Source: a virus
Taxonomy: Duplodnaviria > Heunggongvirae > Uroviricota > Caudoviricetes
Reading direction: 5' to 3' (one strand)
DNA length: 44,694 bases
Virus record (IMG/VR): IMGVR_UViG_638341196_000008
Part shown: positions 2,432-43,660 of the stretch, piece by piece
Layout of the letters: each line of letters begins with the position of its first letter
How positions within the stretch are numbered: the stretch's first letter is position 1
Made by a program: the position numbers and the translations under genes
Notes under the pieces: generated by a model
Told to the model about the DNA's origin: nothing
Seen by the model: the letters and a program-made list of their open reading frames with translations, nothing else
Database searches by the model: none

Positions 2432-3325
2432 CTATTTCCAGTTACAAGCAGCTTGAAGCGGTTTTAGCGCGTTTGACAGGCCGTTTAAATTGAAAGTTGC
2501 ACTTACGGGGCTCTCATTATAAGGCGTTATTTTTGTATACATTTTGCTTGAGTTGGCTAGTTTTCGGATGAAATCAATGTCATTACCTTTATAAAAAACA
2601 GCCTTTGTATCTGTAGATACTAGCCAGTTTCGCTCAACTGCTTTCTGTTTATCAAGGCGATAAAGCATGCTGGTTTGTTCAAGGCCTAAATATACATCCC
2701 AACTAAGAAATACTTCGGTTTTCTTTTCTCGGCAAGCTATAAACAGAGTAGGAGTAACCGCTTCTCCAAATGGAGTTCTGATATAATCATCACTTTCTAA
2801 CGATAGAATTACATTTTTCGAATCATCAATTGGCGATGTAGTAATGGATGTGTGCCATTTTCCTACATCTGTGGCTTTCTCTAATTTTGATTCAGCTTGA
2901 ACGGCTTTATCCTGTGGGAATAGTTTATCGTAGCAGTTTAGTCTGGCTTCTTTATCATTTTCTGCACGACATTTAGATATCTCAGAAAAATTTGGTTGCT
3001 GAGCCTCTGTTGTTACTGGCTTTTCCGTTTTAGATTTTGAGTTTACAGATGGAGTAAATGTTGGAGAAAAGAAACGATCATAACAAGATAAACGTCTATC
3101 ATCATCTTTCTCATCAGGGCATTGATCTCTGCTTTCGAATTTTTCAGCAACTTTCGTTCGAGTCGGTTGTATTGACTTATCGTAACAAGAAAGTCTGTCT
3201 TTATTATTTTCTATTGCTCGGCACTGGAGTACTGCATTGAAGTTCTTATGTTCAGTTGCTGCGTGAACAGGCAGTACACTAATTGATATAAATGATGCAC
3301 CTATAGAAAAAATTATATTTTTCAT
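2432..3325 (-). CDS. Secreted protein with three RL[S/N]CYD[K/R] repeats and a C-terminal domain; function unknown (possibly T6SS-associated VasI-like, uncertain)
   Basis: N-terminal signal peptide (MKNIIFSIGASFISISVLPVHA); repeats RLSCYDK, RLSCYDRFF, RLNCYDKLF; AT-rich codon usage. Confidence 0.6.
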   Translation of the reverse strand: MKNIIFSIGASFISISVLPVHAATEHKNFNAVLQCRAIENNKDRLSCYDKSIQPTRTKVAEKFESRDQCPDEKDDDRRLSCYDRFFSPTFTPSVNSKSKTEKPVTTEAQQPNFSEISKCRAENDKEARLNCYDKLFPQDKAVQAESKLEKATDVGKWHTSITTSPIDDSKNVILSLESDDYIRTPFGEAVTPTLFIACREKKTEVFLSWDVYLGLEQTSMLYRLDKQKAVERNWLVSTDTKAVFYKGNDIDFIRKLANSSKMYTKITPYNESPVSATFNLNGLSNALKPLQAACNWK

Positions 3326-27971: not shown

Positions 27972-28463
27972 TCACTCTCCTTTGATGCGAATGCCAGTGG
28001 TACTCATTCTCCTGATTTCCCAGAGCACACGAGGAACACCACCGTTTCCGACCGGATCGCGTTTACTCCGCAGGGCGACGCTTGATTCCGCCCAGCTTTT
28101 TCTTGGAGGAAGCTCTTTCACACGAACAAAACCAGCTGCGCGAAGAGATGCTCCTGATTCATCTGCCCGGGTGTACGTAATACAACGTTGATAACCCATA
28201 GCTTTTGCTGCCCGCCAGACAGCACCATAAAGCGCGCTGTTAGCGTTGCGTTCTCCTGTGGTACATGTGCGATTTACTTCAAGCGTTAATCCATCGTCCA
28301 AATGTCGTGCAACAGGTCGACCGGCTGTCGCCACACCTATCAATTCTCCGGCATCATTTCTCAGACCAATGCTGAATTTATGCCCCACCGGGGGTTTATT
28401 GTGTCGGTGATGTCTGGATATAAATGCCTTCGCAACACGAAGAGTAACCGGTGAAATCTGCAC
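27972..28463 (-). CDS. Hypothetical protein, weak GNAT-acyltransferase-like C-terminal motif (uncertain)
   Basis: Start set at GTG 7 nt after SD AAGGAG; ...GYQRCITYTRADESGASLRAAGF resembles the acetyl-CoA binding motif region. Confidence 0.4.
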   Translation of the reverse strand: MQISPVTLRVAKAFISRHHRHNKPPVGHKFSIGLRNDAGELIGVATAGRPVARHLDDGLTLEVNRTCTTGERNANSALYGAVWRAAKAMGYQRCITYTRADESGASLRAAGFVRVKELPPRKSWAESSVALRSKRDPVGNGGVPRVLWEIRRMSTTGIRIKGE

Positions 28464-28465
28464 TC

Positions 28466-28780
28466 TCACTCTCCTTTGATACCAATGTTTACAGTCTGGC
28501 AAGCTTCTCTGAGCACCCAGTCAACAGCGTCTTTCCATGCTCCGGTTTCAGTTGGCGGATTCTCACGCTTTACCAGTTCATAGAAACGTACTGCTCTAAC
28601 CAGTCCATCTGACGGTTTTGCCTGTAGTGCAGCCTGAGCTATACGGTATGCCTGGAGCATACGGGCGTCGTTGATATCCATTCCGAACGGAATTTCTGAT
28701 GATCGTGATTCTGCATCTTCAAGCCTGGCAATTTCTTTACGTAAAAAGTATTTCAACTCTTGTTTTTGTTTTCTGTTCAT
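28466..28780 (-). CDS. Hypothetical protein, 104 aa
   Basis: ATGA overlap with upstream gene; no recognisable motif. Confidence 0.5.
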
Positions 28781-29109
28781 GTGTTTTTTCCCTTTTTGTC
28801 TGCCACTTCTCTCCTGATAATTTCATTGCACAAATCCACGCACTCATTGCAGATGTAAACAGACGGTCCAGCAATCACCTTTGTGACTTCGTACTGGGAT
28901 TTATTGCAGAAGCTGCAATAAATCGTTTCCTCGCCTGAAGCCCATGTTTTGCTGGTTTTGCCAGACATCAGTTGTTTGAGGTCTTTTTCACGACGAAGAA
29001 CTATCTGGCCACATTCAGCTATTTTTTGGATGTTGACATTTTCTTCTTTCGCCAGCGCTTCCATCCGCTCAATCAGTCGCTGCGCTTTTTCTCTGTCAAT
29101 GTGTTGCAT
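28777..29109 (-). CDS. Small protein with C-terminal ClpX-type C4 zinc-binding domain and N-terminal coiled-coil region
   Basis: [39 protein letters not shown] is near-identical in pattern to the ClpX N-terminal zinc-binding domain (LYCSFCGKSQ...VYICDECVDLCNDII); SD AAGGGGG. Confidence 0.7.
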
Positions 29110-29172
29110 TGTGTCCCCCTTGTTTATGTTCCCGGGTTAAAGTCATCAGGGCGGATGCGCCCTGATGTTGTG

Positions 29173-29484
29173 TTATTCGGGAAATAACGCCCGGATATTT
29201 CCGGCCATCTGACTGGTTATCTGTGCGGTTGATACTGGCTGTGATGCGGGGCGTTCTGTCCTGGTTTGTGTCACTGATAACGCCTCATCATCAGCCCATG
29301 CAGCCAGTCGGTAAGCCTCTGCCGGATTCATTTTCAGAAGTGCCAGCCCGGCCAGAAAAGCCACGCGTTGGCCGCTTTTGCGGGCTTCTGGTGTAAGGCT
29401 GTCCAGCCAGGCGCATGCTTCGCCTTCGTTCTTGACGGCGGCGGGCTTCAGATAGAAACTTATTCGTCTGGTTGGTGTCGTCAT
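29173..29484 (-). CDS. parR: ParR-like partition adaptor/repressor
   Basis: About 103 aa starting MTTPTRRISFYLKP; resembles R1 ParR (RRTIAFKL..., ...LFPKE); SD AAGGAG; immediately downstream of parM. Confidence 0.6.
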   Translation of the reverse strand: MTTPTRRISFYLKPAAVKNEGEACAWLDSLTPEARKSGQRVAFLAGLALLKMNPAEAYRLAAWADDEALSVTQTRTERPASQPVSTAQITSQMAGNIRALFPE

Positions 29485-29488
29485 TGAT

Positions 29489-30448
29489 TTACTCCTTGTC
29501 CATTGCGTACAGCCCATTAACCAGAGCAAACTGTGGCACCCCGTCCGCGATGAAAGTCGCATTAACTCCGCAGGCTTCGCGGATAGCGGGTGCCACAATC
29601 TCCGCTCCTCCACCTACAACCATCACCCGCCCGTAACCCGAAAAACCCGCCAGCGCGCGGATCACGCGTTGTTTCAGTGTTTCTTCCTTTTCACGAATAA
29701 CCGCCATCAGGCTGGCGTAATGTGCGTCATTGTGGATGTGCTGGCGCAGCCAGGCTTCATCATGGCGATGTTCGATAATGGTATTGGCGATGTGGTGACT
29801 GGTACGCATACCGTTAGTGGCCATCACCGACAGTACGGCATCGGCCATCAGGGAAACGCCTACGTGTGGATCGCAAAATACCTGGCTGATACCTGCCAAC
29901 TGCCCCTGAACCTTTGCCACATCCAGCGTGGTTCCGCCCAAATCCACAATCAGCAGGGATTCAAACGGACTCATGTCAGCCAGTGTTTTAAAGCCAGTTG
30001 GAATGGATTCAGGCATAACCCGTACGTTACGGATAGTGAATGCTTCGCCGTTCTGGTACTCCACCGGGCGCATAACGTTCGCTTTTTTGCGGTTGATGTT
30101 GGCCATGTCCGGCTGTGCGTTTGTGTCGAAATACTCGCTCAGTGGCAGGGTGACAACCACATCCACCTCCTGTGGCGTGATGCCTGATTTGACCAGCGCG
30201 TGATGAATGGCAATGACATTCACATCGCTGTACTGGTATTGCGTGTCGGTCGTCTGGACAAAGCGATCGCTGACCGGATCAAAACCATAGCGCACGCCAT
30301 CAAGCATGTAGTTCGCGGGCTGCGTGCCACCGAACGGCGCAGACCATTCCGACTTGAAGCTGTTCGGGCTGATGGCGTTGCGGCGTTCGCCGTTCTCAGT
30401 CCATGCCAGCTTGATGTTGGTGGAGCCGTCGTCGATACAAATTTTCAT
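29489..30448 (-). CDS. parM: ParM/StbA-like actin-family partition ATPase
   Basis: 319 aa; strong similarity to R1 ParM throughout (IDDGSTNIKL, YSDVNVIAIHHAL, MPESIP, DLGGTTLD, GGGAE). Confidence 0.8.
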   Translation of the reverse strand: MKICIDDGSTNIKLAWTENGERRNAISPNSFKSEWSAPFGGTQPANYMLDGVRYGFDPVSDRFVQTTDTQYQYSDVNVIAIHHALVKSGITPQEVDVVVTLPLSEYFDTNAQPDMANINRKKANVMRPVEYQNGEAFTIRNVRVMPESIPTGFKTLADMSPFESLLIVDLGGTTLDVAKVQGQLAGISQVFCDPHVGVSLMADAVLSVMATNGMRTSHHIANTIIEHRHDEAWLRQHIHNDAHYASLMAVIREKEETLKQRVIRALAGFSGYGRVMVVGGGAEIVAPAIREACGVNATFIADGVPQFALVNGLYAMDKE

Positions 30449-30591
30449 GTCGCTTTTCCTTATGTTGATTAATTAATCGTTTACGGGATTCTGAAATCCC
30501 GTTTTTTCCGTAAGCGCCCCATCAGCGACGTCTTGTGAAAATTGTCCTGTCTGGCAACAATCGCGCCCATCTATATTGATGGACACGAACG

Positions 30592-31077
30592 ATGAATTCC
30601 CAGACAACAAAAGATATTCCCTGCTTCCGTTCTTATTTGCCTGATGCCCTGCGTTTAAGATTTGAAGATAAACTGACCATCCGGGCCATCGCTCAGCGTC
30701 TGGGTCTCAGTCATTCCACAATACATACGCTTTTTCAGCGATTTCTTGCATCCGGTATCGCATGGCCATTGCCCGATTCAGTTTCATTCGCTCAACTTGA
30801 CGCCATCCTTTATGCCAACAGAAAGAAGGAATTAACAGAGCCTCAAATCAGAGAAGGCTCATGGCGAAAAGAACGGCGAACCAGCTATAGCCGTGAATTT
30901 AAGGTCCGTCTGGCTAAGCAGGCGTTACAGCCTGGGGCTGTTGTTGCCCGGATCGCCAGAGAACACGATATCAATGATAACCTGCTGTTTAAATGGAAAA
31001 GCCAGTACGAGGACGGCTTACTGAGCGATGATGACATACAGGCATACAGGAATGCATGCCTGTCCCGGTGGCACTGA
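30592..31077 (+). CDS. IS66-family accessory HTH protein (transposase_8-like)
   Basis: 161 aa with ...YSREFKVRLAKQALQPGAVVARIAREHDINDNLLFKWKSQY HTH region. Confidence 0.65.
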   Translation: MNSQTTKDIPCFRSYLPDALRLRFEDKLTIRAIAQRLGLSHSTIHTLFQRFLASGIAWPLPDSVSFAQLDAILYANRKKELTEPQIREGSWRKERRTSYSREFKVRLAKQALQPGAVVARIAREHDINDNLLFKWKSQYEDGLLSDDDIQAYRNACLSRWH

Positions 31078-31274
31078 CTGATACGCCGGAGCCGACCAGA
31101 CCAGTTACAAATCCCTTCTGGCGTAACAAGCATGATGAGCGCCCTGAGGGGGCTCCCGGAAACGTCCCACGGTGCGAGCTGCATCTTAAATCAGGTGTGG
31201 TAAAACTGTTTGACCCTCTCACTCCGGAACTGTTACGGGCGCTAATCCGCGAAATGAAAGGGGGTATCCGATGA
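31056..31274 (+). CDS. IS66-family small ORF (TnpA-like), ATGA-overlapping tnpB
   Basis: 72-aa ORF whose stop overlaps the TnpB start. Confidence 0.45.
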   Translation: MPVPVALTDTPEPTRPVTNPFWRNKHDERPEGAPGNVPRCELHLKSGVVKLFDPLTPELLRALIREMKGGIR

Positions 31275-31618
31275 TAACGCTGCCGACCGGTACCAGAATC
31301 TGGATCATCGCTGGCATCACAGATATGCGTTGTGGCTTCAATGGCCTGGCTTCGAAGGTGCAGAACACGCTGAAAGATGACCCGTTCTCCGGGCATATCT
31401 TCGTCTTCCGGGGCCGCAGTGGCAAAATGGTGAAAATACTGTGGGCCGATCGTGACGGGTTATGCCTGTTCGCCAAACGCCTGGAACGGGGCCGCTTCGT
31501 CTGGCCGGTGACCCGGGAAGGGAAAGTGCACCTGACGCCAGCTCAGTTATCCATGCTACTGGAGGGGATCGCGTGGCAACATCCCACACGGACAGAACGG
31601 CCTGGCATCCGGATATAA
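31271..31618 (+). CDS. tnpB: IS66-family TnpB
   Basis: 115 aa, MITLPTGTRIWIIAGITDMR... typical of IS66 Orf2. Confidence 0.8.
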   Translation: MITLPTGTRIWIIAGITDMRCGFNGLASKVQNTLKDDPFSGHIFVFRGRSGKMVKILWADRDGLCLFAKRLERGRFVWPVTREGKVHLTPAQLSMLLEGIAWQHPTRTERPGIRI

Positions 31619-31637
31619 CCCGTGATAAAACAAGGGA

Positions 31638-33195
31638 ATGAACAATGAACTCCCCGATGATATTGAGCTGCTTAAAGCCATGTTGCGTAAGCAACAGAGT
31701 CGGCTTCGACAGTATGCCTGTCAGGTCGCGGGCTATGAGCAGGAAATTGAACGGCTGAAAGCGCAACTCGACAGGTTGCGTCGTATGTTGTTCGGCCAGA
31801 GTTCAGAGAAAAAGCGTCATAAGCTTGAAAATCAGATCCGACAGGCAGAAAAACGACTGTCGGAACTGGAAAACCGGCTGAACACAGCCAGAAATCTTCT
31901 GGAAGATGCATCGTCAGTCACAGATTCACCTGACACCAGTCCCCCGTCAGAAAACCCGATCGCCAGTAAGCCTGAATCCCCGGGAGACACATCGCCTTCT
32001 GCCTGCTGAAACCAGTTGCCCGGCCTGTGGAGGTGTTCTGAAAGAAATGGGGGAAACAATCTCAGAGCAACTGGATATCATTAATACCGCCTTTAAAGTT
32101 ATCGAAACCATACGTCCCAAACTGGCCTGTAGCCGGTGTGATGTCATCGTTCAGGCACCACTTCCCCCTAAACCGATCGAACGCGGTTATGCCAGTGCAG
32201 GGTTACTTGCACGGATCCTGGTCAGCAAATATATGGAACATATCCCTTTATATCGCCAGTCAGAAATATACGCGCGACAGGGCGTGGAGCTGAGCCGTAA
32301 TACCATGGTGCGCTGGGTATCAGAAATGGCAGACAAACTCCGTCCTCTGTATATAGCGCTGAATGACTATGTTCTGGAGGCAGGAAAGGTGCACGCAGAT
32401 GACACTCCGGTGAAAGTACTGGCCCCGGGGAACGGAAAGACGAAAACGGGTCGTCTGTGGGTATACGTCAGGGATGATCGTAATGCGGGTTCATCCCTGC
32501 CGGCAGCCGTCTGGTTCGCGTATTCGGCAGATCGCAAAGGAGAACATCCGCAGCTCCACCTGGCAAAGTATCAGGGCGTACTGCAGGCTGATGCCTATGC
32601 AGGTTATAACGTACTGTACGAAACGGGCCGGGTGAAGGAAGCCGGGTGCCTGGCCCACGCCCGCCGAAAAATCCATGACGAGGATGTGCGCCGTCCGACA
32701 GAAATGACTCAGGAAGCGCTCAGACGGATAGCAGAGTTATACGACATAGAAGCGGAGATACGTGGCAGTCCGGCAGAGGAACGGCTTGCAGTCAGAAAAG
32801 CCAGAAGCGTCCAGTTGATGCAGTCGTTGTACGACTGGATACAGTTGCAGAGGAAAACGCTGTCGAAACATGCGGAGATGGCGAAGGCGTTCGACTATAT
32901 CCTGAATCACTGGAATGCGCTGAACGAGTTCTGTCGTGACGGCTGGGTGGAAATAGACAACAACATCGGTGAAAACGCGTTACGATCGGTGGCGGTTGGA
33001 AGAAAAAATTATCTCTTTTTCGGCTCAGACAAGGGAGGAGAAAGTGCGGCGATCATCTACAGTCTGCTGGTCACCTGCAAACAGAACGAAGTGGAGCCGG
33101 AGGACTGGTTGCGCGAAGTGATCGAGAAGCTCAATGACTGGCCGTCGAACCAAGTGCATGAACTGCTGCCCTGGAACTTCTCGTCTGTAAAATAA
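31638..33195 (+). pseudogene. tnpC: IS66-family transposase TnpC, split by a frame change between 31906 and 32009
   Basis: N-terminal leucine-zipper ORF (31638..32009) and main ORF (31906..33195, containing CPACGG zinc finger) are in different frames; same in copy B. Confidence 0.7.
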
Positions 33196-33227
33196 TCCTT
33201 ACGCTACGTACTTCTCGGGGCGCTTAC

Positions 33228-33235
33228 ATTTCTCC
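33228..33235. repeat. 8-bp target-site duplication half (ATTTCTCC) at copy A right end
   Basis: Reverse complement of GGAGAAAT at 43653..43660, flanking copy B outer end. Confidence 0.7.
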
Positions 33236-34229: not shown

Positions 34230-34334
34230 GAAACCTGACAACCTAGACTGGCCCCCTGAATCTCCAGACAACCAGTATCACTTAAATAAGTGATAGTCTT
34301 AATACTAGTTTTTAGACTAGTCATTGGAGTACAG

Positions 34335-34700
34335 ATGATTGATGTCTTAGGGCCGGAGAAACGCAGACGGCGTACCACACAGGAAAAGATCGCAATTGTT
34401 CAGCAGAGCTTTGAACCGGGGATGACGGTCTCCCTCGTTGCCCGGCAACATGGTGTAGCAGCCAGCCAGTTATTTCTCTGGCGTAAGCAATACCAGGAAG
34501 GAAGTCTTACTGCTGTGGCCGCCGGAGAACAGGTTGTTCCTGCCTCTGAACTTGCTGCCGCCATGAAGCAGATTAAAGAACTCCAGCGCCTGCTCGGCAA
34601 GAAAACGATGGAAAATGAACTCCTCAAAGAAGCCGTTGAATATGGACGGGCAAAAAAGTGGATAGCGCACGCGCCCTTATTGCCCGGGGATGGAGAGTAA
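34335..34700 (+). CDS. insC: IS2 InsC (OrfA)
   Basis: [47 protein letters not shown]... matches IS2 InsC. Confidence 0.9.
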
Positions 34701-35563
34701 GCTTAGTCAGCCGTTGTCTCCGGGTGTCGCGTGCGCAGTTGCACGTCATTCTCAGACGAACCGATGACTGGATGGATGGCCGCCGCAGTCGTCACACTGA
34801 TGATACGGATGTGCTTCTCCGTATACACCATGTTATCGGAGAGCTGCCCACGTATGGTTATCGTCGGGTATGGGTGCTGCTTCGCAGACAGGCAGAACTT
34901 GATGGTATGCCTGCGAACAATGCCAAACGTGTTTACCGGATCATGCGCCAGAATGCGCTGTTGCTTGAGCGAAAACCTGCTGTACCGCCATCGAAACGGG
35001 CACATACAGGCAGAGTGGCCGTGAAAGAAAGCAATCAGCGATGGTGCTCTGACGGGTTCGAGTTCTGCTGTGATAACGGAGAGAGACTGCGTGTCACGTT
35101 CGCGCTGGACTGCTGTGATCGTGAGGCACTGCACTGGGCGGTGACTACCGGCGGCTTCAACAGTGAAACAGTACAGGACGTCATGCTGGGAGCGGTGGAA
35201 CGCCGCTTCGGCAACGATCTTCCGTCGTCTCCAGTGGAGTGGCTGACGGATAATGGTTCATGCTACCGGGCTAATGAAACACGCCAGTTCGCCCGGATGT
35301 TGGGACTTGAACCGAAGAACACGGCGGTGCGGAGTCCGGAGAGTAACGGAATAGCAGAGAGCTTCGTGAAAACGATAAAGCGTGACTACATCAGTATCAT
35401 GCCCAAACCAGACGGGTTAACGGCAGCAAAGAACCTTGCAGAGGCGTTCGAGCATTATAACGAATGGCATCCGCATAGTGCGCTGGGTTATCGCTCGCCA
35501 CGGGAATATCTGCGGCAGCGGGCTTGTAATGGGTTAAGTGATAACAGATGTCTGGAAATATAG
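34658..35563 (+). CDS. insD: IS2 InsD transposase (OrfB)
   Basis: 301-aa DDE transposase characteristic of IS2. Confidence 0.9.
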
Positions 35564-38646: not shown

Positions 38647-40938
38647 ATGACGGCAGAGTACATCAGGGACTGGCAACAACCGCGCCACGCAGTGGGGCGT
38701 GAAGGAACGGGGATCCCCGCTCCTGAATCCGTGCTTTCCTCCTGGCTGGATGCCTACCGGGTAGAGAACGAGCGCCGCCAGGAAATGGCTAATGCGGCGT
38801 TCTCCGCCACGCCGCTGGGCAACCTGATTAATAAAAGCCTGGACGCACAGGAAAAACAGGACAAAACCATCACACTGGCAGGAGACGCCAGAAAACAGGC
38901 ACGCGGCGCGGTGGATGAAGCCATGGCCTCGCTGCACCTGCTGCCGTCCTATCTGCGCGATCCGCTTATTCGCCACCTCTCCTTCCTGCGCAAAAAACAG
39001 GAAGCCGATCGCCGGAAAGGCAAAAAGAGCTGGCAGGCGGAACGCTATGCACGCGGAACCCTGCGCAAAATATTCGAACGTCTGGATCGCACTGACGGAC
39101 ACTGGCTGACACCGGGTTATCGCTCCCTTGCCGGACGCGAACGCCTGGACGATTTGCTTTACCTGCCGCAGCTCAACAAACACCAGATACAGACGCTGGC
39201 CACCATGACGGCGGCGATGTTCAGCAGCACCTTCGAAAAACTCTGCGATGGCTTTGGCGCGACCGATGGCGAACTGACCATGGATGTAACGCTGAAGGCG
39301 TATCAGATGCTGGCCCGCATGGCGTTACACCTGCACGCCATGCCTCCACATTATGACGCACTGACAACAGACAAAGACCGGAGGAACGAACCGGACACGG
39401 AGCTGCTGCCGGGCGCAATCCTTCGCCTGACCTGTGCGGAATGGTGGAAACGCAAACTGTGGCTGTTACGTTGCGAGTGGAGAGAAGAACAACTCCGCGC
39501 CGCCTGTCTGGTTTCCAGAAAAACATCACCCTATCTGAGCCAGGACGCGTTAAGCGAGTTTCGCGCACAGCGCGAGAAAACACGCGATTTCCTGAAAAGT
39601 TTCATGCTGGAAAACGAAGACGGGTTCACGATTGATCTCGAGACAGTGTATTACGCGGGAGTAAGTAACCCGGTTCACCGTAAGGCAGAAATGATGGCCA
39701 CCATGAAGGGGCTGGAACTTCTGGCCGAAGCCCGTGGCGACAAAGCGGTGTTTCTGACTGTCACCTGCCCGTCAAAATACCACGCCACAACAGAGAACAG
39801 TCATCCGAATCCCAAATGGAACGGGGCCACCATGCGCGACTCCAGCGATTACCTGGTTAACACGTTTTTTGCAGCGGTCCGCAAGAAACTGAACCGCGAC
39901 GGCCTGCGCTGGTATGGCATCCGCACGGTGGAGCCTCACCATGACGGCACCGTGCACTGGCATATGATGGTCTTTGCTCATCCGGAAGAAATCGACACCA
40001 TTGTGTCCCACACCCGCGATATTGCCATTCAGGAAGATCGTCACGAGCTGGGTGATGATATTACCCCACGCTTTAAGGCGGAGTACGTCGACGGCTCAAA
40101 AGGCACGCCAACCAGCTACATCGCCACCTACATCGGAAAGAACCTGGACAGCCGCGCCGTGGATGGCATCGACCCGAAAACGGGCAAGCCACGCGTTGAC
40201 CACGAAACAGGTAAATCAATGGCCGAGAGCGTGGAGCGCGCCATCGGCTGGGCGCGCCTTCACCGGGTCCGCCAGTTCCAGTTCTTTGGCATCCCCTCCC
40301 GTCAGGTGTGGCGTGAACTCCGCCGCCTTGCCAGCCAGATAGCACGCAACCCAGAAGGCCCGCAACGGCTGAAGGATGACGCAATGGATGCGGTTCTTGC
40401 TGCCGCTGATGCCGGGTGTTTTGCCACCTACATTGAAAAACAGGGTGGCGTACTTGTTCCGCGCAAGGACTACCTGATTCGCACAGCCTACGACCTCGCA
40501 GATGAGCTGAACGATTACGGCGAACAGAGTGTACAGATTTACGGGATCTGGTCGCCATTCATCGGGGAATCCTCCCGTGTGTGCACGCATCCGGATAACT
40601 GGAAGCTGGTAAGACGTAAACCGGAAGCGGAGGACAGCACCCGCGAAAATGGTTTTGACCTTCAGGGCGGCCCTGCCGCCCCTTGGACTCGTGGCAATAA
40701 CTGTCCCCGTGTACAGGAAACGGACAACAACGGGACAGAACAGCCGAAAGAACGGCCAGCACCGTGGCCGCAGCTCCCTGACGGCGTTGAAGTGAACGAA
40801 TGGATGCGCTCACTGAAACGGCACGAACGCCGGGCGCTGATGCGTTCGCTTCGTGACAAACAGGCAAAAAACAGCAGTGATGAAATGCAGAGCTGGACAC
40901 AGAGCCGCAAACAGCAGCGGCCTTTGCCTGATAAGTAA
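38647..40938 (+). CDS. A: Rolling-circle replication initiator gpA-like; last codon and stop supplied by the IS66 end
   Basis: 763 aa; HUH-type motif HWHMMVF and active-site tyrosines YIATYIGK; stop TAA lies inside GTAAGCG of the IS terminus. Confidence 0.8.
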   Translation: MTAEYIRDWQQPRHAVGREGTGIPAPESVLSSWLDAYRVENERRQEMANAAFSATPLGNLINKSLDAQEKQDKTITLAGDARKQARGAVDEAMASLHLLPSYLRDPLIRHLSFLRKKQEADRRKGKKSWQAERYARGTLRKIFERLDRTDGHWLTPGYRSLAGRERLDDLLYLPQLNKHQIQTLATMTAAMFSSTFEKLCDGFGATDGELTMDVTLKAYQMLARMALHLHAMPPHYDALTTDKDRRNEPDTELLPGAILRLTCAEWWKRKLWLLRCEWREEQLRAACLVSRKTSPYLSQDALSEFRAQREKTRDFLKSFMLENEDGFTIDLETVYYAGVSNPVHRKAEMMATMKGLELLAEARGDKAVFLTVTCPSKYHATTENSHPNPKWNGATMRDSSDYLVNTFFAAVRKKLNRDGLRWYGIRTVEPHHDGTVHWHMMVFAHPEEIDTIVSHTRDIAIQEDRHELGDDITPRFKAEYVDGSKGTPTSYIATYIGKNLDSRAVDGIDPKTGKPRVDHETGKSMAESVERAIGWARLHRVRQFQFFGIPSRQVWRELRRLASQIARNPEGPQRLKDDAMDAVLAAADAGCFATYIEKQGGVLVPRKDYLIRTAYDLADELNDYGEQSVQIYGIWSPFIGESSRVCTHPDNWKLVRRKPEAEDSTRENGFDLQGGPAAPWTRGNNCPRVQETDNNGTEQPKERPAPWPQLPDGVEVNEWMRSLKRHERRALMRSLRDKQAKNSSDEMQSWTQSRKQQRPLPDK

Positions 40939-43652
40939 GCGCCCCGAGAAGTACGTAGCGTAAGGATTATTTTACAGACGAGAAGTTCCAGGGCAGCAGT
41001 TCATGCACTTGGTTCGACGGCCAGTCATTGAGCTTCTCGATCACTTCGCGCAACCAGTCCTCCGGCTCCACTTCGTTCTGTTTGCAGGTGACCAGCAGAC
41101 TGTAGATGATCGCCGCACTTTCTCCTCCCTTGTCTGAGCCGAAAAAGAGATAATTTTTTCTTCCAACCGCCACCGATCGTAACGCGTTTTCACCGATGTT
41201 GTTGTCTATTTCCACCCAGCCGTCACGACAGAACTCGTTCAGCGCATTCCAGTGATTCAGGATATAGTCGAACGCCTTCGCCATCTCCGCATGTTTCGAC
41301 AGCGTTTTCCTCTGCAACTGTATCCAGTCGTACAACGACTGCATCAACTGGACGCTTCTGGCTTTTCTGACTGCAAGCCGTTCCTCTGCCGGACTGCCAC
41401 GTATCTCCGCTTCTATGTCGTATAACTCTGCTATCCGTCTGAGCGCTTCCTGAGTCATTTCTGTCGGACGGCGCACATCCTCGTCATGGATTTTTCGGCG
41501 GGCGTGGGCCAGGCACCCGGCTTCCTTCACCCGGCCCGTTTCGTACAGTACGTTATAACCTGCATAGGCATCAGCCTGCAGTACGCCCTGATACTTTGCC
41601 AGGTGGAGCTGCGGATGTTCTCCTTTGCGATCTGCCGAATACGCGAACCAGACGGCTGCCGGCAGGGATGAACCCGCATTACGATCATCCCTGACGTATA
41701 CCCACAGACGACCCGTTTTCGTCTTTCCGTTCCCCGGGGCCAGTACTTTCACCGGAGTGTCATCTGCGTGCACCTTTCCTGCCTCCAGAACATAGTCATT
41801 CAGCGCTATATACAGAGGACGGAGTTTGTCTGCCATTTCTGATACCCAGCGCACCATGGTATTACGGCTCAGCTCCACGCCCTGTCGCGCGTATATTTCT
41901 GACTGGCGATATAAAGGGATATGTTCCATATATTTGCTGACCAGGATCCGTGCAAGTAACCCTGCACTGGCATAACCGCGTTCGATCGGTTTAGGGGGAA
42001 GTGGTGCCTGAACGATGACATCACACCGGCTACAGGCCAGTTTGGGACGTATGGTTTCGATAACTTTAAAGGCGGTATTAATGATATCCAGTTGCTCTGA
42101 GATTGTTTCCCCCATTTCTTTCAGAACACCTCCACAGGCCGGGCAACTGGTTTCAGCAGGCAGAAGGCGATGTGTCTCCCGGGGATTCAGGCTTACTGGC
42201 GATCGGGTTTTCTGACGGGGGACTGGTGTCAGGTGAATCTGTGACTGACGATGCATCTTCCAGAAGATTTCTGGCTGTGTTCAGCCGGTTTTCCAGTTCC
42301 GACAGTCGTTTTTCTGCCTGTCGGATCTGATTTTCAAGCTTATGACGCTTTTTCTCTGAACTCTGGCCGAACAACATACGACGCAACCTGTCGAGTTGCG
42401 CTTTCAGCCGTTCAATTTCCTGCTCATAGCCCGCGACCTGACAGGCATACTGTCGAAGCCGACTCTGTTGCTTACGCAACATGGCTTTAAGCAGCTCAAT
42501 ATCATCGGGGAGTTCATTGTTCATTCCCTTGTTTTATCACGGGTTATATCCGGATGCCAGGCCGTTCTGTCCGTGTGGGATGTTGCCACGCGATCCCCTC
42601 CAGTAGCATGGATAACTGAGCTGGCGTCAGGTGCACTTTCCCTTCCCGGGTCACCGGCCAGACGAAGCGGCCCCGTTCCAGGCGTTTGGCGAACAGGCAT
42701 AACCCGTCACGATCGGCCCACAGTATTTTCACCATTTTGCCACTGCGGCCCCGGAAGACGAAGATATGCCCGGAGAACGGGTCATCTTTCAGCGTGTTCT
42801 GCACCTTCGAAGCCAGGCCATTGAAGCCACAACGCATATCTGTGATGCCAGCGATGATCCAGATTCTGGTACCGGTCGGCAGCGTTATCATCGGATACCC
42901 CCTTTCATTTCGCGGATTAGCGCCCGTAACAGTTCCGGAGTGAGAGGGTCAAACAGTTTTACCACACCTGATTTAAGATGCAGCTCGCACCGTGGGACGT
43001 TTCCGGGAGCCCCCTCAGGGCGCTCATCATGCTTGTTACGCCAGAAGGGATTTGTAACTGGTCTGGTCGGCTCCGGCGTATCAGTCAGTGCCACCGGGAC
43101 AGGCATGCATTCCTGTATGCCTGTATGTCATCATCGCTCAGTAAGCCGTCCTCGTACTGGCTTTTCCATTTAAACAGCAGGTTATCATTGATATCGTGTT
43201 CTCTGGCGATCCGGGCAACAACAGCCCCAGGCTGTAACGCCTGCTTAGCCAGACGGACCTTAAATTCACGGCTATAGCTGGTTCGCCGTTCTTTTCGCCA
43301 TGAGCCTTCTCTGATTTGAGGCTCTGTTAATTCCTTCTTTCTGTTGGCATAAAGGATGGCGTCAAGTTGAGCGAATGAAACTGAATCGGGCAATGGCCAT
43401 GCGATACCGGATGCAAGAAATCGCTGAAAAAGCGTATGTATTGTGGAATGACTGAGACCCAGACGCTGAGCGATGGCCCGGATGGTCAGTTTATCTTCAA
43501 ATCTTAAACGCAGGGCATCAGGCAAATAAGAACGGAAGCAGGGAATATCTTTTGTTGTCTGGGAATTCATCGTTCGTGTCCATCAATATAGATGGGCGCG
43601 ATTGTTGCCAGACAGGACAATTTTCACAAGACGTCGCTGATGGGGCGCTTAC
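40935..43652 (-). mobile_element. IS66-family insertion sequence, copy B, identical to copy A and inverted
   Basis: All ORFs mirror copy A with a constant coordinate sum (74162); ORFs 43085..43570, 42888..43106, 42544..42891, 42153..42524 and 40967..42256. Confidence 0.85.
40967..42524 (-). pseudogene. tnpC: IS66-family TnpC of copy B (same frame change)
   Basis: Mirror of 31638..33195. Confidence 0.7.
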
Positions 43653-43660
43653 GGAGAAAT
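43653..43660. repeat. 8-bp target-site duplication half (GGAGAAAT) at copy B outer end
   Basis: Reverse complement of 33228..33235. Confidence 0.7.

Follow-up and report, generated by a model that had tools for sequence, protein, structure and literature searches.

ClpXP determines how long sigma-S, the proteins of SOS and mutagenesis, antitoxins, cell-division proteins and a number of phage proteins persist, and most of its selectivity is exerted through a small zinc-binding domain (ZBD) at the N-terminus of ClpX. The window analyzed here, by which we mean the whole stretch of 44,694 nucleotides from a tailed virus, contains on its minus strand a gene whose product resembles this docking domain. 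This raises the question of what a phage might gain from a docking domain that is not attached to an unfoldase. The gene and its parts are located as follows.

28777-29109, minus strand: complete coding sequence of the predicted stand-alone ClpX-ZBD protein, ATG start, 110 amino acids plus stop (from the open reading frame list and the sequence)
28966-29109, minus strand: N-terminal helical hairpin, amino acids 1-48, with helices at 6-22 and 27-48, as predicted by AF2
28924-28965, minus strand: linker, amino acids 49-62, variable in length and sequence (low pLDDT; indels in the family alignment)
28804-28923, minus strand: ClpX-type C4 zinc-binding domain, amino acids 63-102, with Cys65, Cys68, Cys87 and Cys90 (Pfam PF06689; 1OVX, 2DS5)
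28777-28803, minus strand: short charged C-terminal tail, amino acids 103-110, ADKKGKNT, plus stop (from the sequence)
29114-29121, minus strand: Shine-Dalgarno sequence AAGGGGGA, 5 nt upstream of the ATG, read from the sequence (complement)
29144-29167, no strand assigned: perfect hairpin with a 10-bp stem and a 4-nt loop between the stop of the parR-like gene and the ZBD gene (-22.9 kcal/mol, z=-5.1)

The first-pass annotation had assigned the C-terminal 40 residues or so to the C4 zinc-binding domain of ClpX, and the comparison with ClpX ZBD profiles that it proposed bore this out. The profile zf-C4_ClpX (PF06689) matches residues 64-99 over profile positions 2-38 of 39 with E=2.8e-18 and 66 bits, the Pfam gathering score being 27, and no Pfam family besides this one matched the protein at E<=0.01. 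The best match among PDB sequences is the isolated ZBD of E. coli ClpX (1OVX, E=2.4e-19, residues 59-104), and the other E. coli ClpX ZBD structures, 2DS5/6/8, match at E=6.4e-19. The zinc cysteines C65, C68, C87 and C90 show the CxxC...CxxC spacing, occur without exception in the 14 family members compared and correspond to C14, C17, C36 and C39 of ClpX in the numbering of the literature. A direct comparison with E. coli clpX at the protein and codon level showed that 31 of the 43 aligned residues are identical, with about 82% identity over the YCSFC...IIRxE core. The identity to host ClpX (75-82%) extends across the whole domain and is not restricted to a single patch. The pocket residues F16 and I46 of ClpX correspond to F67 and I97 of the phage protein; F67 is replaced by leucine in one of the 14 family sequences, and the position of I97 is occupied by isoleucine or valine.

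The AAA+ module is missing, as had also been claimed. The ClpX equivalogs TIGR00382 and NF003745 reached 49.9 and 48.6 bits, compared with cutoffs of 370.75 and 359, and matched only at model positions 6-52 and 3-49, respectively. The protein stops 8 residues past the ZBD, and the next downstream ORF is unrelated. Since the equivalog matches are limited to about the first 50 positions and the protein ends soon after the ZBD, there is no AAA+ module. Judged by its sequence, the product of 28777-29109 is a free-standing ClpX-type ZBD.

The description of the N-terminus as a short coiled coil had to be corrected. In place of the coiled coil, which may or may not be formed, stands a predicted helical hairpin followed by a linker. 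The AF2 model, calculated from an alignment of 17 sequences, places the two helices at residues 6-22 and 27-48 with pLDDT values of 79-96 in blocks of ten; the linker 49-62 is predicted to be disordered, with pLDDT <50 at residues 53-61. For the ZBD part the monomer model gave low pLDDT values (45-71), which would not be surprising in a domain that binds zinc and dimerizes. A fold search of this model against the PDB gave no match at E<=0.001, which says little, as the ZBD is poorly modeled and a helical hairpin too generic. In the family alignment the hairpin residues I4, E17, E23, K29, L38, R39 and R40 are nearly invariant, and the C-terminal tail differs among the homologues. Using the first 60 amino acids as query, we obtained 11 matches among 1.84 billion representative proteins. 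Ten of them are family members or fragments, and the eleventh, a 1,212-aa protein matching in six stretches, was taken as coiled-coil noise. As the matches thus fall within the family, we regard the hairpin as a family-specific invention.

The ZBD ORF is intact and its ribosome-binding site is strong. The end of the ORF shares 4 nt (ATGA) with the beginning of the following one, which has a length of 104 aa. A sequence scan directly upstream of the ZBD gene revealed no sigma-70 promoter-like site. The intergenic hairpin at 29144-29167 is followed by a T-run on the plus strand only and is therefore not a classical terminator for the minus-strand operon; it marks a mosaic junction of the cargo slot. 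Neither this hairpin nor the repeats described below matched Rfam at E<=1.

The window represents a P2-like E. coli prophage that has been rearranged; it is collinear with the prophage of UTI89 that adjoins dmsABC (97% identity). The ZBD gene itself shows 99.7% nucleotide identity to UTI89_RS04545 (WP_001163786.1), annotated as 'ClpX C4-type zinc finger protein'. It is surrounded by the following features.

29489-30448, minus strand: parM, operon neighbor
Stop at 29173, minus strand: StbB/ParR-like gene, operon neighbor, followed by a 63-nt spacer before the ZBD gene
27972-28502, minus strand: XF1762/Mom-like GNAT gene (Pfam Mom E=1.2e-4; NCBIfam XF1762 E=1.3e-60; PHROG annotation 'Mom-like DNA modification protein')
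27425-27403, minus strand: terminator-like hairpin after two small ORFs

On the minus strand the order is thus parM, the StbB/ParR-like gene, the spacer, the ZBD gene, the 104-aa ORF, the XF1762/Mom-like gene, the two small ORFs and the terminator-like hairpin, beyond which the portal gene Q is located on the opposite strand. Judging from how the genes are arranged in UTI89, in P88 and in P2-like loci of Salmonella and of other E. coli, the ZBD gene occupies the variable, cos-proximal slot between gpA and gpQ. In P2 the same slot holds old and tin, and Rousset et al. reported 1,650 different gene arrangements at this locus, including many anti-phage systems (PMC9122126). Alignments to other E. 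coli prophages with parMR break at about window positions 29118-29173, and such a break at the junction of parR and the ZBD gene is consistent with a variable slot. None of the seven operon proteins, the ZBD protein included, matched a family of PADLOC-DB 2.0 at E<=0.01. A known defense system was rejected on this ground, and a defense role is left without support from this database.

The protein belongs to a family that has already been catalogued, as PHROG 6797 and under the NCBI name 'ClpX C4-type zinc finger protein'; its domain is a member of PF06689 and the protein is not a ClpX. The first-pass annotation had missed this family membership as well as the minus strand and the position in the gpA-gpQ slot. 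The match to PHROG 6797 covers the full length (E=4.6e-58, residues 1-106 versus profile positions 5-107 of 107). PHROGs annotates phrog_6797 as 'unknown function', the NCBI name is derived from the domain alone, and older database records misname the family 'carboxylate--amine ligase'. Full-length relatives with hairpin and ZBD, 45-97% identical to the window protein, are confined to temperate enterobacterial phages and were found in the following elements.

P2-like phage P88, gp19: 97% identity
P2-like phage PhiR44_2: 94% identity
Other E. coli P2-like prophage (P0013): 50% identity
Salmonella P2-like prophages (P0019, 128 aa): 45% identity
P1-like phage D6, orf93: 48% identity
Non-mobilizable plasmids of about 83-113 kb from E. 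coli, Salmonella and Shigella, e.g. pECOH89: about 47-52% identity, 95 plasmid records at a coverage of at least 80%

We take pECOH89 to be an SSU5-like phage-plasmid. The Salmonella protein contains an insertion of 11 aa in the linker according to the family alignment. Among 5,426 complete E. coli genomes the ZBD gene was covered to at least 80% in 112, and any match was found in 221.

The neighborhood of the gene changes from carrier to carrier. According to BLASTP, the ORFs located downstream of the ZBD gene in the window and P88, in pECOH89 and in D6 are mutually unrelated. In D6 and in the elements of the pECOH89 type the gene lies among ordinary early accessory genes and not in a defense island. 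In the Salmonella P2-like prophages no other ORF lies between ogr/portal and a small ORF that follows gpA, and the gene has on either side a direct repeat of 71 nt. The two repeats are 97% identical and fold into a long hairpin; this repeat had no match in the window. As the neighbors are unrelated across the carriers, the ZBD gene is a single-gene module or cassette.

Two closer associations were considered and rejected. A two-gene system with the overlapping downstream ORF, either toxin-antitoxin-like or with a coupled partner, disagrees with the unrelated downstream proteins and with the Salmonella loci, which have no downstream partner; in addition, pZ1323PEC0009-2 contains a gene like that for the 104-aa protein and no ZBD gene. 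An obligate link to ParM/ParR or to a plasmid lifestyle disagrees with the Salmonella and the other E. coli P2-like prophages, which carry the ZBD gene without ParMR. Furthermore, about half of the 2,621 E. coli records matching the 3.1-kb region have ParMR, and most of these lack the ZBD gene.

The sequence of the ZBD is under selection. Over this domain the gene agrees with E. coli clpX at 82 of 129 nt (64%), and for 20 of the 31 shared residues the two genes use different codons, which indicates that the protein sequence has been held by selection and does not stem from a recent capture. Between copies of the P2 type and the D6/pECOH89 type the ZBD shows a dN of 0.18-0.24 and a dS of 0.56-1.19, corresponding to a dN/dS of about 0.2-0.3. 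This low ratio and the diverged codons argue that a ClpX-like protein surface is selected for. In the same comparison the hairpin has a dN of about 0.56 and a saturated dS; it drifts within a conserved pattern (E17, E23, K29, L38-R39-R40). A non-functional fragment of a captured clpX is a reading to which we give hardly any credence. It could point to the presence of only the first ClpX domain, but intact ORFs that begin at the same start occur in many E. coli genomes and also, at 45-97% identity, in several lineages of phages. The low dN/dS of the ZBD and a codon usage diverged from clpX speak against it as well, and the ZBD lies C-terminal to a conserved extra module without an AAA+ remnant behind it. 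The conservation data effectively refute such a fragment; a recent capture or a pseudogene was rejected likewise, given the nucleotide identity of 64%, the diverged codons and an intact family under purifying selection.

What the retained surface might do is suggested by published work on ClpX. Mutagenesis ties the pocket residues F16 and I46 to the docking of trigger factor (TF); they are part of a hydrophobic region of the ZBD on which lambda O, SspB and RssB rely as well, and lambda O and MuA are ZBD-dependent clients (PMC7804408). The ZBD of E. coli ClpX on its own, supplied in trans at 5-20 µM, inhibits the RssB-mediated breakdown of sigma-S by ClpXP in vitro and cross-links to the C-domain of RssB, where its docking site was proposed to overlap that of the anti-adaptor IraD (PMC7226468). 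ClpX without the ZBD still degrades ssrA-tagged proteins but not sigma-S delivered by RssB or lambda O (PMC7226468, PMC7804408). The ZBD is a dimerization domain (PMC7226468; Wojtyra et al. 2003).

The explanation that we put forward, tentatively and at somewhat less than an even chance, is that the phage protein mimics the ZBD and competes for adaptors and substrates that dock on the N-domain of ClpX. The phage ZBD would probably fold and dimerize like the ClpX N-domain, with its hydrophobic docking pocket exposed in the same manner. As a free cytoplasmic protein it would rival the ZBD dimers of ClpX hexamers for proteins that have to dock there, among them trigger factor, the adaptors SspB and RssB, and substrates that depend on the ZBD, for example lambda O and MuA. 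One would expect that N-domain-dependent degradation and remodeling by ClpXP are selectively weakened and the direct recognition of ssrA-type tags at the pore is spared, which would resemble a partial phenocopy of ClpX without its N-domain. The N-terminal hairpin may oligomerize the protein and thereby raise its avidity for bivalent adaptors, or it may bind one particular partner. Because the gene moves alone, as a cassette in an accessory slot of temperate phages, the payoff would be expected in host modulation or in competition with other phages, for example by stabilizing sigma-S or by blocking phages that require ClpX, such as Mu.

Three points make this decoy idea more plausible: the docking-pocket residues are retained as F67 and I97, the isolated ClpX ZBD is inhibitory in trans (PMC7226468), and the ZBD has remained under purifying selection despite its synonymous divergence from clpX. 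As the free ZBD is effective in vitro only at micromolar excess, a simple decoy needs high expression or extra avidity. Moreover, a pure decoy model leaves the conserved N-terminal hairpin unexplained.

The hairpin has a central place in another reading, a hijacking adaptor. Here the phage ZBD would heterodimerize with the ZBD of ClpX, or dock otherwise, and the tethered hairpin would recruit a specific phage or host protein to be degraded or remodeled, or shield one from this fate. The conservation of the whole ZBD, at 75-82% identity to host ClpX despite synonymous divergence, is what a match to the host dimer interface would require, and the dimerization of this domain mentioned above fits in with it. 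The hairpin is conserved across subfamilies and unique to the family, suggesting a ligand of its own; on the other hand it evolves fast, as the dN between the subfamilies indicates, and no conserved partner gene lies beside the ZBD gene. ClpX ZBD dimers are reported to be stable within the hexamer, and we know of no exchange with a free domain. On the whole we consider a hijacking adaptor unlikely. Similarly improbable in our view is a dedicated role in superinfection exclusion comparable to that of old and tin, in which the free ZBD would sequester incoming phage proteins with ZBD-docking signals (lambda O-like or MuA-like) or block required ClpX functions. This reading involves the same molecular mechanism as the ZBD mimic and differs in the biological role alone. 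Mu requires ClpX for lytic growth, and lambda O and MuA are among the ZBD-dependent clients, but a stabilized lambda O would not obviously hurt lambda. The gpA-gpQ locus is a defense hotspot (PMC9122126), and in the Salmonella P2-like prophages the ZBD gene is its sole ORF apart from the small one next to gpA; many cargos of the hotspot are, however, non-defense genes, the protein has no match in PADLOC, and the copies of D6 and of the pECOH89 type lie outside defense islands.

A function unrelated to ClpX is very improbable, although the operon offers an analogy. The small zinc-finger protein Com of phage Mu activates the translation of mom, and by this analogy the zinc ribbon might bind RNA or DNA and control its neighbors. 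The XF1762/Mom-like GNAT gene is located two ORFs downstream in the same operon, and the ZBD ORF is linked to the next ORF by the overlap of 4 nt. However, no XF1762 gene accompanies the ZBD gene in D6, in pECOH89, in P88 or in the P2-like loci of Salmonella and of other E. coli, and most loci with the ZBD gene thus lack it. Since zf-C4_ClpX is the sole Pfam match at E<=0.01, no Com-type profile was found, and an obligate mom-type linkage does not exist; a Com-like translational activator of mom was rejected as the main reading on these two grounds. The identity of 82% to the core of the ClpX ZBD points to protein contacts of the ClpX type, and we know of no nucleic-acid binding by this domain.

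Returning to the ZBD mimic, a wider claim would be that temperate phages of enterobacteria, namely D6, P2-like phages and large phage-like plasmids, possess a dedicated mimic of ClpX's docking domain that rewires proteolysis in the lysogen and/or excludes phages that depend on the ClpX N-domain, e.g. Mu, the small ZBD ORFs of Pseudomonas, Klebsiella and Caulobacter phages being independent instances. This is possible, though rather doubtful. If it holds true, the mimic would be the first viral modulator of adaptor and substrate docking on ClpX, and the ZBD cassette would amount to a horizontally transferred anti-adaptor that stabilizes, for example, sigma-S, UmuD' or SspB cargo, a natural tool that turns off N-domain-dependent proteolysis without killing ClpXP. 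Its confirmation would add ClpX docking to the host hubs hit by viral mimicry and could explain stress tolerance, mutagenesis and phage exclusion in lysogens, uropathogenic UTI89 being one carrier. It would also make available a selective inhibitor, encoded by a gene, with which adaptor-dependent degradation could be dissected, and would tell what PHROG 6797 and related phage families with small ZBDs do. Should the protein have no effect on ClpXP, one would have to account for the strictness with which a ClpX-like surface is conserved. A literature search found no characterization of a stand-alone or phage ClpX ZBD.

Compared with E. coli ClpX, the phage protein has the same C4 zinc ribbon with all four cysteines and keeps F16 and I46 as F67 and I97. 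In contrast to ClpX, its ZBD is free of an AAA+ ring, is located at the C-terminus instead of the N-terminus, is encoded by a prophage and lies behind a phage-specific hairpin of helices, with a flexible linker in between. Other stand-alone ZBD proteins exist. They comprise PHROG 12435 and PHROG 5259, with gp081 of Pseudomonas phage PP9W2 as an example, as well as proteins of about 136 aa from metagenomes that combine a ZBD with a C-terminal domain, and they share with the window protein a ClpX-type zinc ribbon without an AAA+ module. They differ from it in that they lack the N-terminal hairpin, the ZBD being N-terminal or making up the whole protein. Gp081 of Pseudomonas phage PP9W2 is a stand-alone ZBD ORF of 65 aa in the nin region, and Caulobacter phage Cr30 has a small stand-alone ZBD ORF. 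In Klebsiella phage ST846-OXA48phi9.2 an unannotated ZBD ORF of 73 aa ends 14 nt before a 302-aa ORF, which precedes a DnaC-like gene. That small ZBD ORFs recur in such unrelated phages counts in favor of the ZBD mimic. Our literature search found no characterization of any of these other ZBD proteins.

Phage inhibitors of host AAA+ proteases are PinA of T4 and Gp4.5 of T7, which act on Lon, and Gp53 of SPO1, which acts on ClpCP. Like these, the ZBD protein is proposed to be a small phage protein that reprograms ATP-dependent proteolysis of the host. To our knowledge none of the three is a copy of a domain of its target, and we know of no phage inhibitor or modulator of ClpX docking, nor was one described in the literature searched. 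With old and tin of P2 the ZBD gene shares the cos-proximal gpA-gpQ locus with its accessory, often anti-phage, genes (PMC9122126), but the ZBD protein is unrelated to them in sequence and matches no PADLOC model.

The decoy principle has a counterpart in mycobacteria. ClpC2 of these bacteria, a partial ClpC1 homologue, binds cyclomarin A, an antibiotic directed at ClpC1, and thereby protects the cell (PMC10030653). Like the phage ZBD it is a separate, truncated copy of an unfoldase, and it diverts a ligand of the full-length enzyme (PMC10030653). Unlike the phage ZBD, it derives from another unfoldase, has another fold and is encoded by a bacterial chromosome, and its ligand is an antibiotic. 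Together with ClpC2, the closest functional analogues are IraD, IraM and IraP of E. coli, small proteins that stop the delivery of sigma-S to ClpXP by RssB. Because IraD and the ClpX ZBD are proposed to dock at one and the same site of RssB (PMC7226468), the effect of a free ZBD would be that of an anti-adaptor. The Ira proteins have no relationship to the phage ZBD in sequence or fold, and whereas they target RssB only, a ZBD mimic should affect all clients that dock on the ZBD.

Two IS66-family copies flank the early region of the prophage, and the window contains an additional transposase of a different type.

Window 30503-33232: IS66-family copy (tnpA/tnpB/tnpC), 2,730 nt, inverted relative to the other copy.
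Window 40930-43659: IS66-family copy (tnpA/tnpB/tnpC), 2,730 nt, inverted relative to the other copy.
Window 34290-35563: IS3-type transposase with an rve integrase core, within the inverted early region.

The two IS66-family copies are 100% complementary and lie in opposite orientation. They enclose an early region of 7.7 kb that runs in the opposite direction to its counterpart in the P2-like prophage of E. coli UTI89. Replication gene A has lost about 553 bp of its 3' end, and the repA ORF (window 38647-40938) comprises 763 aa versus 940 aa. The prophage is probably replication-defective, but the gene for the protein with the ClpX-type zinc-binding domain (ZBD) is nonetheless intact.

Further genes and one structured element were identified next to the ZBD gene and at the edge of the window.

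Window 27972-28502, minus strand: XF1762-family/Mom-like GNAT protein (NCBIfam E=1.3e-60; PHROG 'Mom-like DNA modification protein').
Window 29144-29167: hairpin with a perfect 10-bp stem and a 4-nt loop (z=-5.1).
Window 29173-30448: ParM/StbB(ParR)-type actin-like partition cassette, on the integrated P2-like prophage.
Window 2432-3325, minus strand: gene for a VasI-like type VI secretion protein (Pfam E=3.9e-25).

The VasI-like gene is located in the first few kb, upstream of the part that aligns to the UTI89 prophage. The XF1762/Mom-like gene shares the cargo operon with the ZBD gene, and its product may have a DNA-modification or anti-restriction function. The hairpin coincides exactly with the point at which the cargo diverges among the prophages carrying ParMR. 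Since it is followed by a T-run on the plus strand only, it does not qualify as a classical terminator of the operon containing it. Of 2,621 E. coli records with a match to the 3.1-kb region, about half have the partition cassette, and it is also present on pZ1323PEC0009-2, a 34-kb circular P2-like 'plasmid'. This occurrence both on prophages and on a circular molecule hints that phages of this group are able to live as plasmids.

In Salmonella P2-like prophages direct repeats were found, with a divergent ZBD gene between them.

L011 5891-5961 and 6390-6460: direct repeats of 71 nt.
L010 5909-5949 and 6391-6431: direct repeats likewise.

The 71-nt repeats share 97% identity, and both fold as long hairpins (z -2.9 and -3.5). 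Neither Rfam nor the window yielded a match to this repeat, which may represent a cassette boundary or a recombination element.

Small stand-alone ZBD ORFs were also detected in other phages.

L008 2501-2722: unannotated ORF with a ClpX-type ZBD, 73 aa, Klebsiella phage ST846-OXA48phi9.2.
L007 2495-2692: stand-alone ZBD ORF gp081, 65 aa, Pseudomonas phage PP9W2.
L009 ~1480-1719: stand-alone ZBD ORF of up to 79 aa, Caulobacter phage Cr30.

A 302-aa ORF begins 14 nt beyond the end of the Klebsiella ORF and is a putative replication initiator because a DnaC-like gene comes next. As initiators of the lambda O type are ZBD-dependent ClpXP substrates, this placement is suggestive. PP9W2 and Cr30 are unrelated phages; gp081 is located in the nin region and adjoins a DksA/TraR-like gene. 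Stand-alone ZBD proteins also occur in a second, bacterial form, the ~136-aa family of P0036, P0061 and their relatives from metagenomes and genomes, which combines an N-terminal ClpX-type ZBD with a conserved C-terminal domain (...SWARIGEALGMTRQSAWERF...) and contains no AAA+ module.

Many records of the ZBD family in the window (P0001, P0003, P0013; P88 gp19; D6 orf93) bear the name 'carboxylate--amine ligase'. This name is a propagated misannotation, as it finds no support in the sequence. Within helix 2 of the family, L38-R39-R40 is nearly invariant (residues 36-45 of the window protein, nt ~28975-29004), and this segment is a lead for possible self-binding or ClpX binding. The ClpX-binding tail of SspB is LRVVK, which residues 36-45 loosely resemble.
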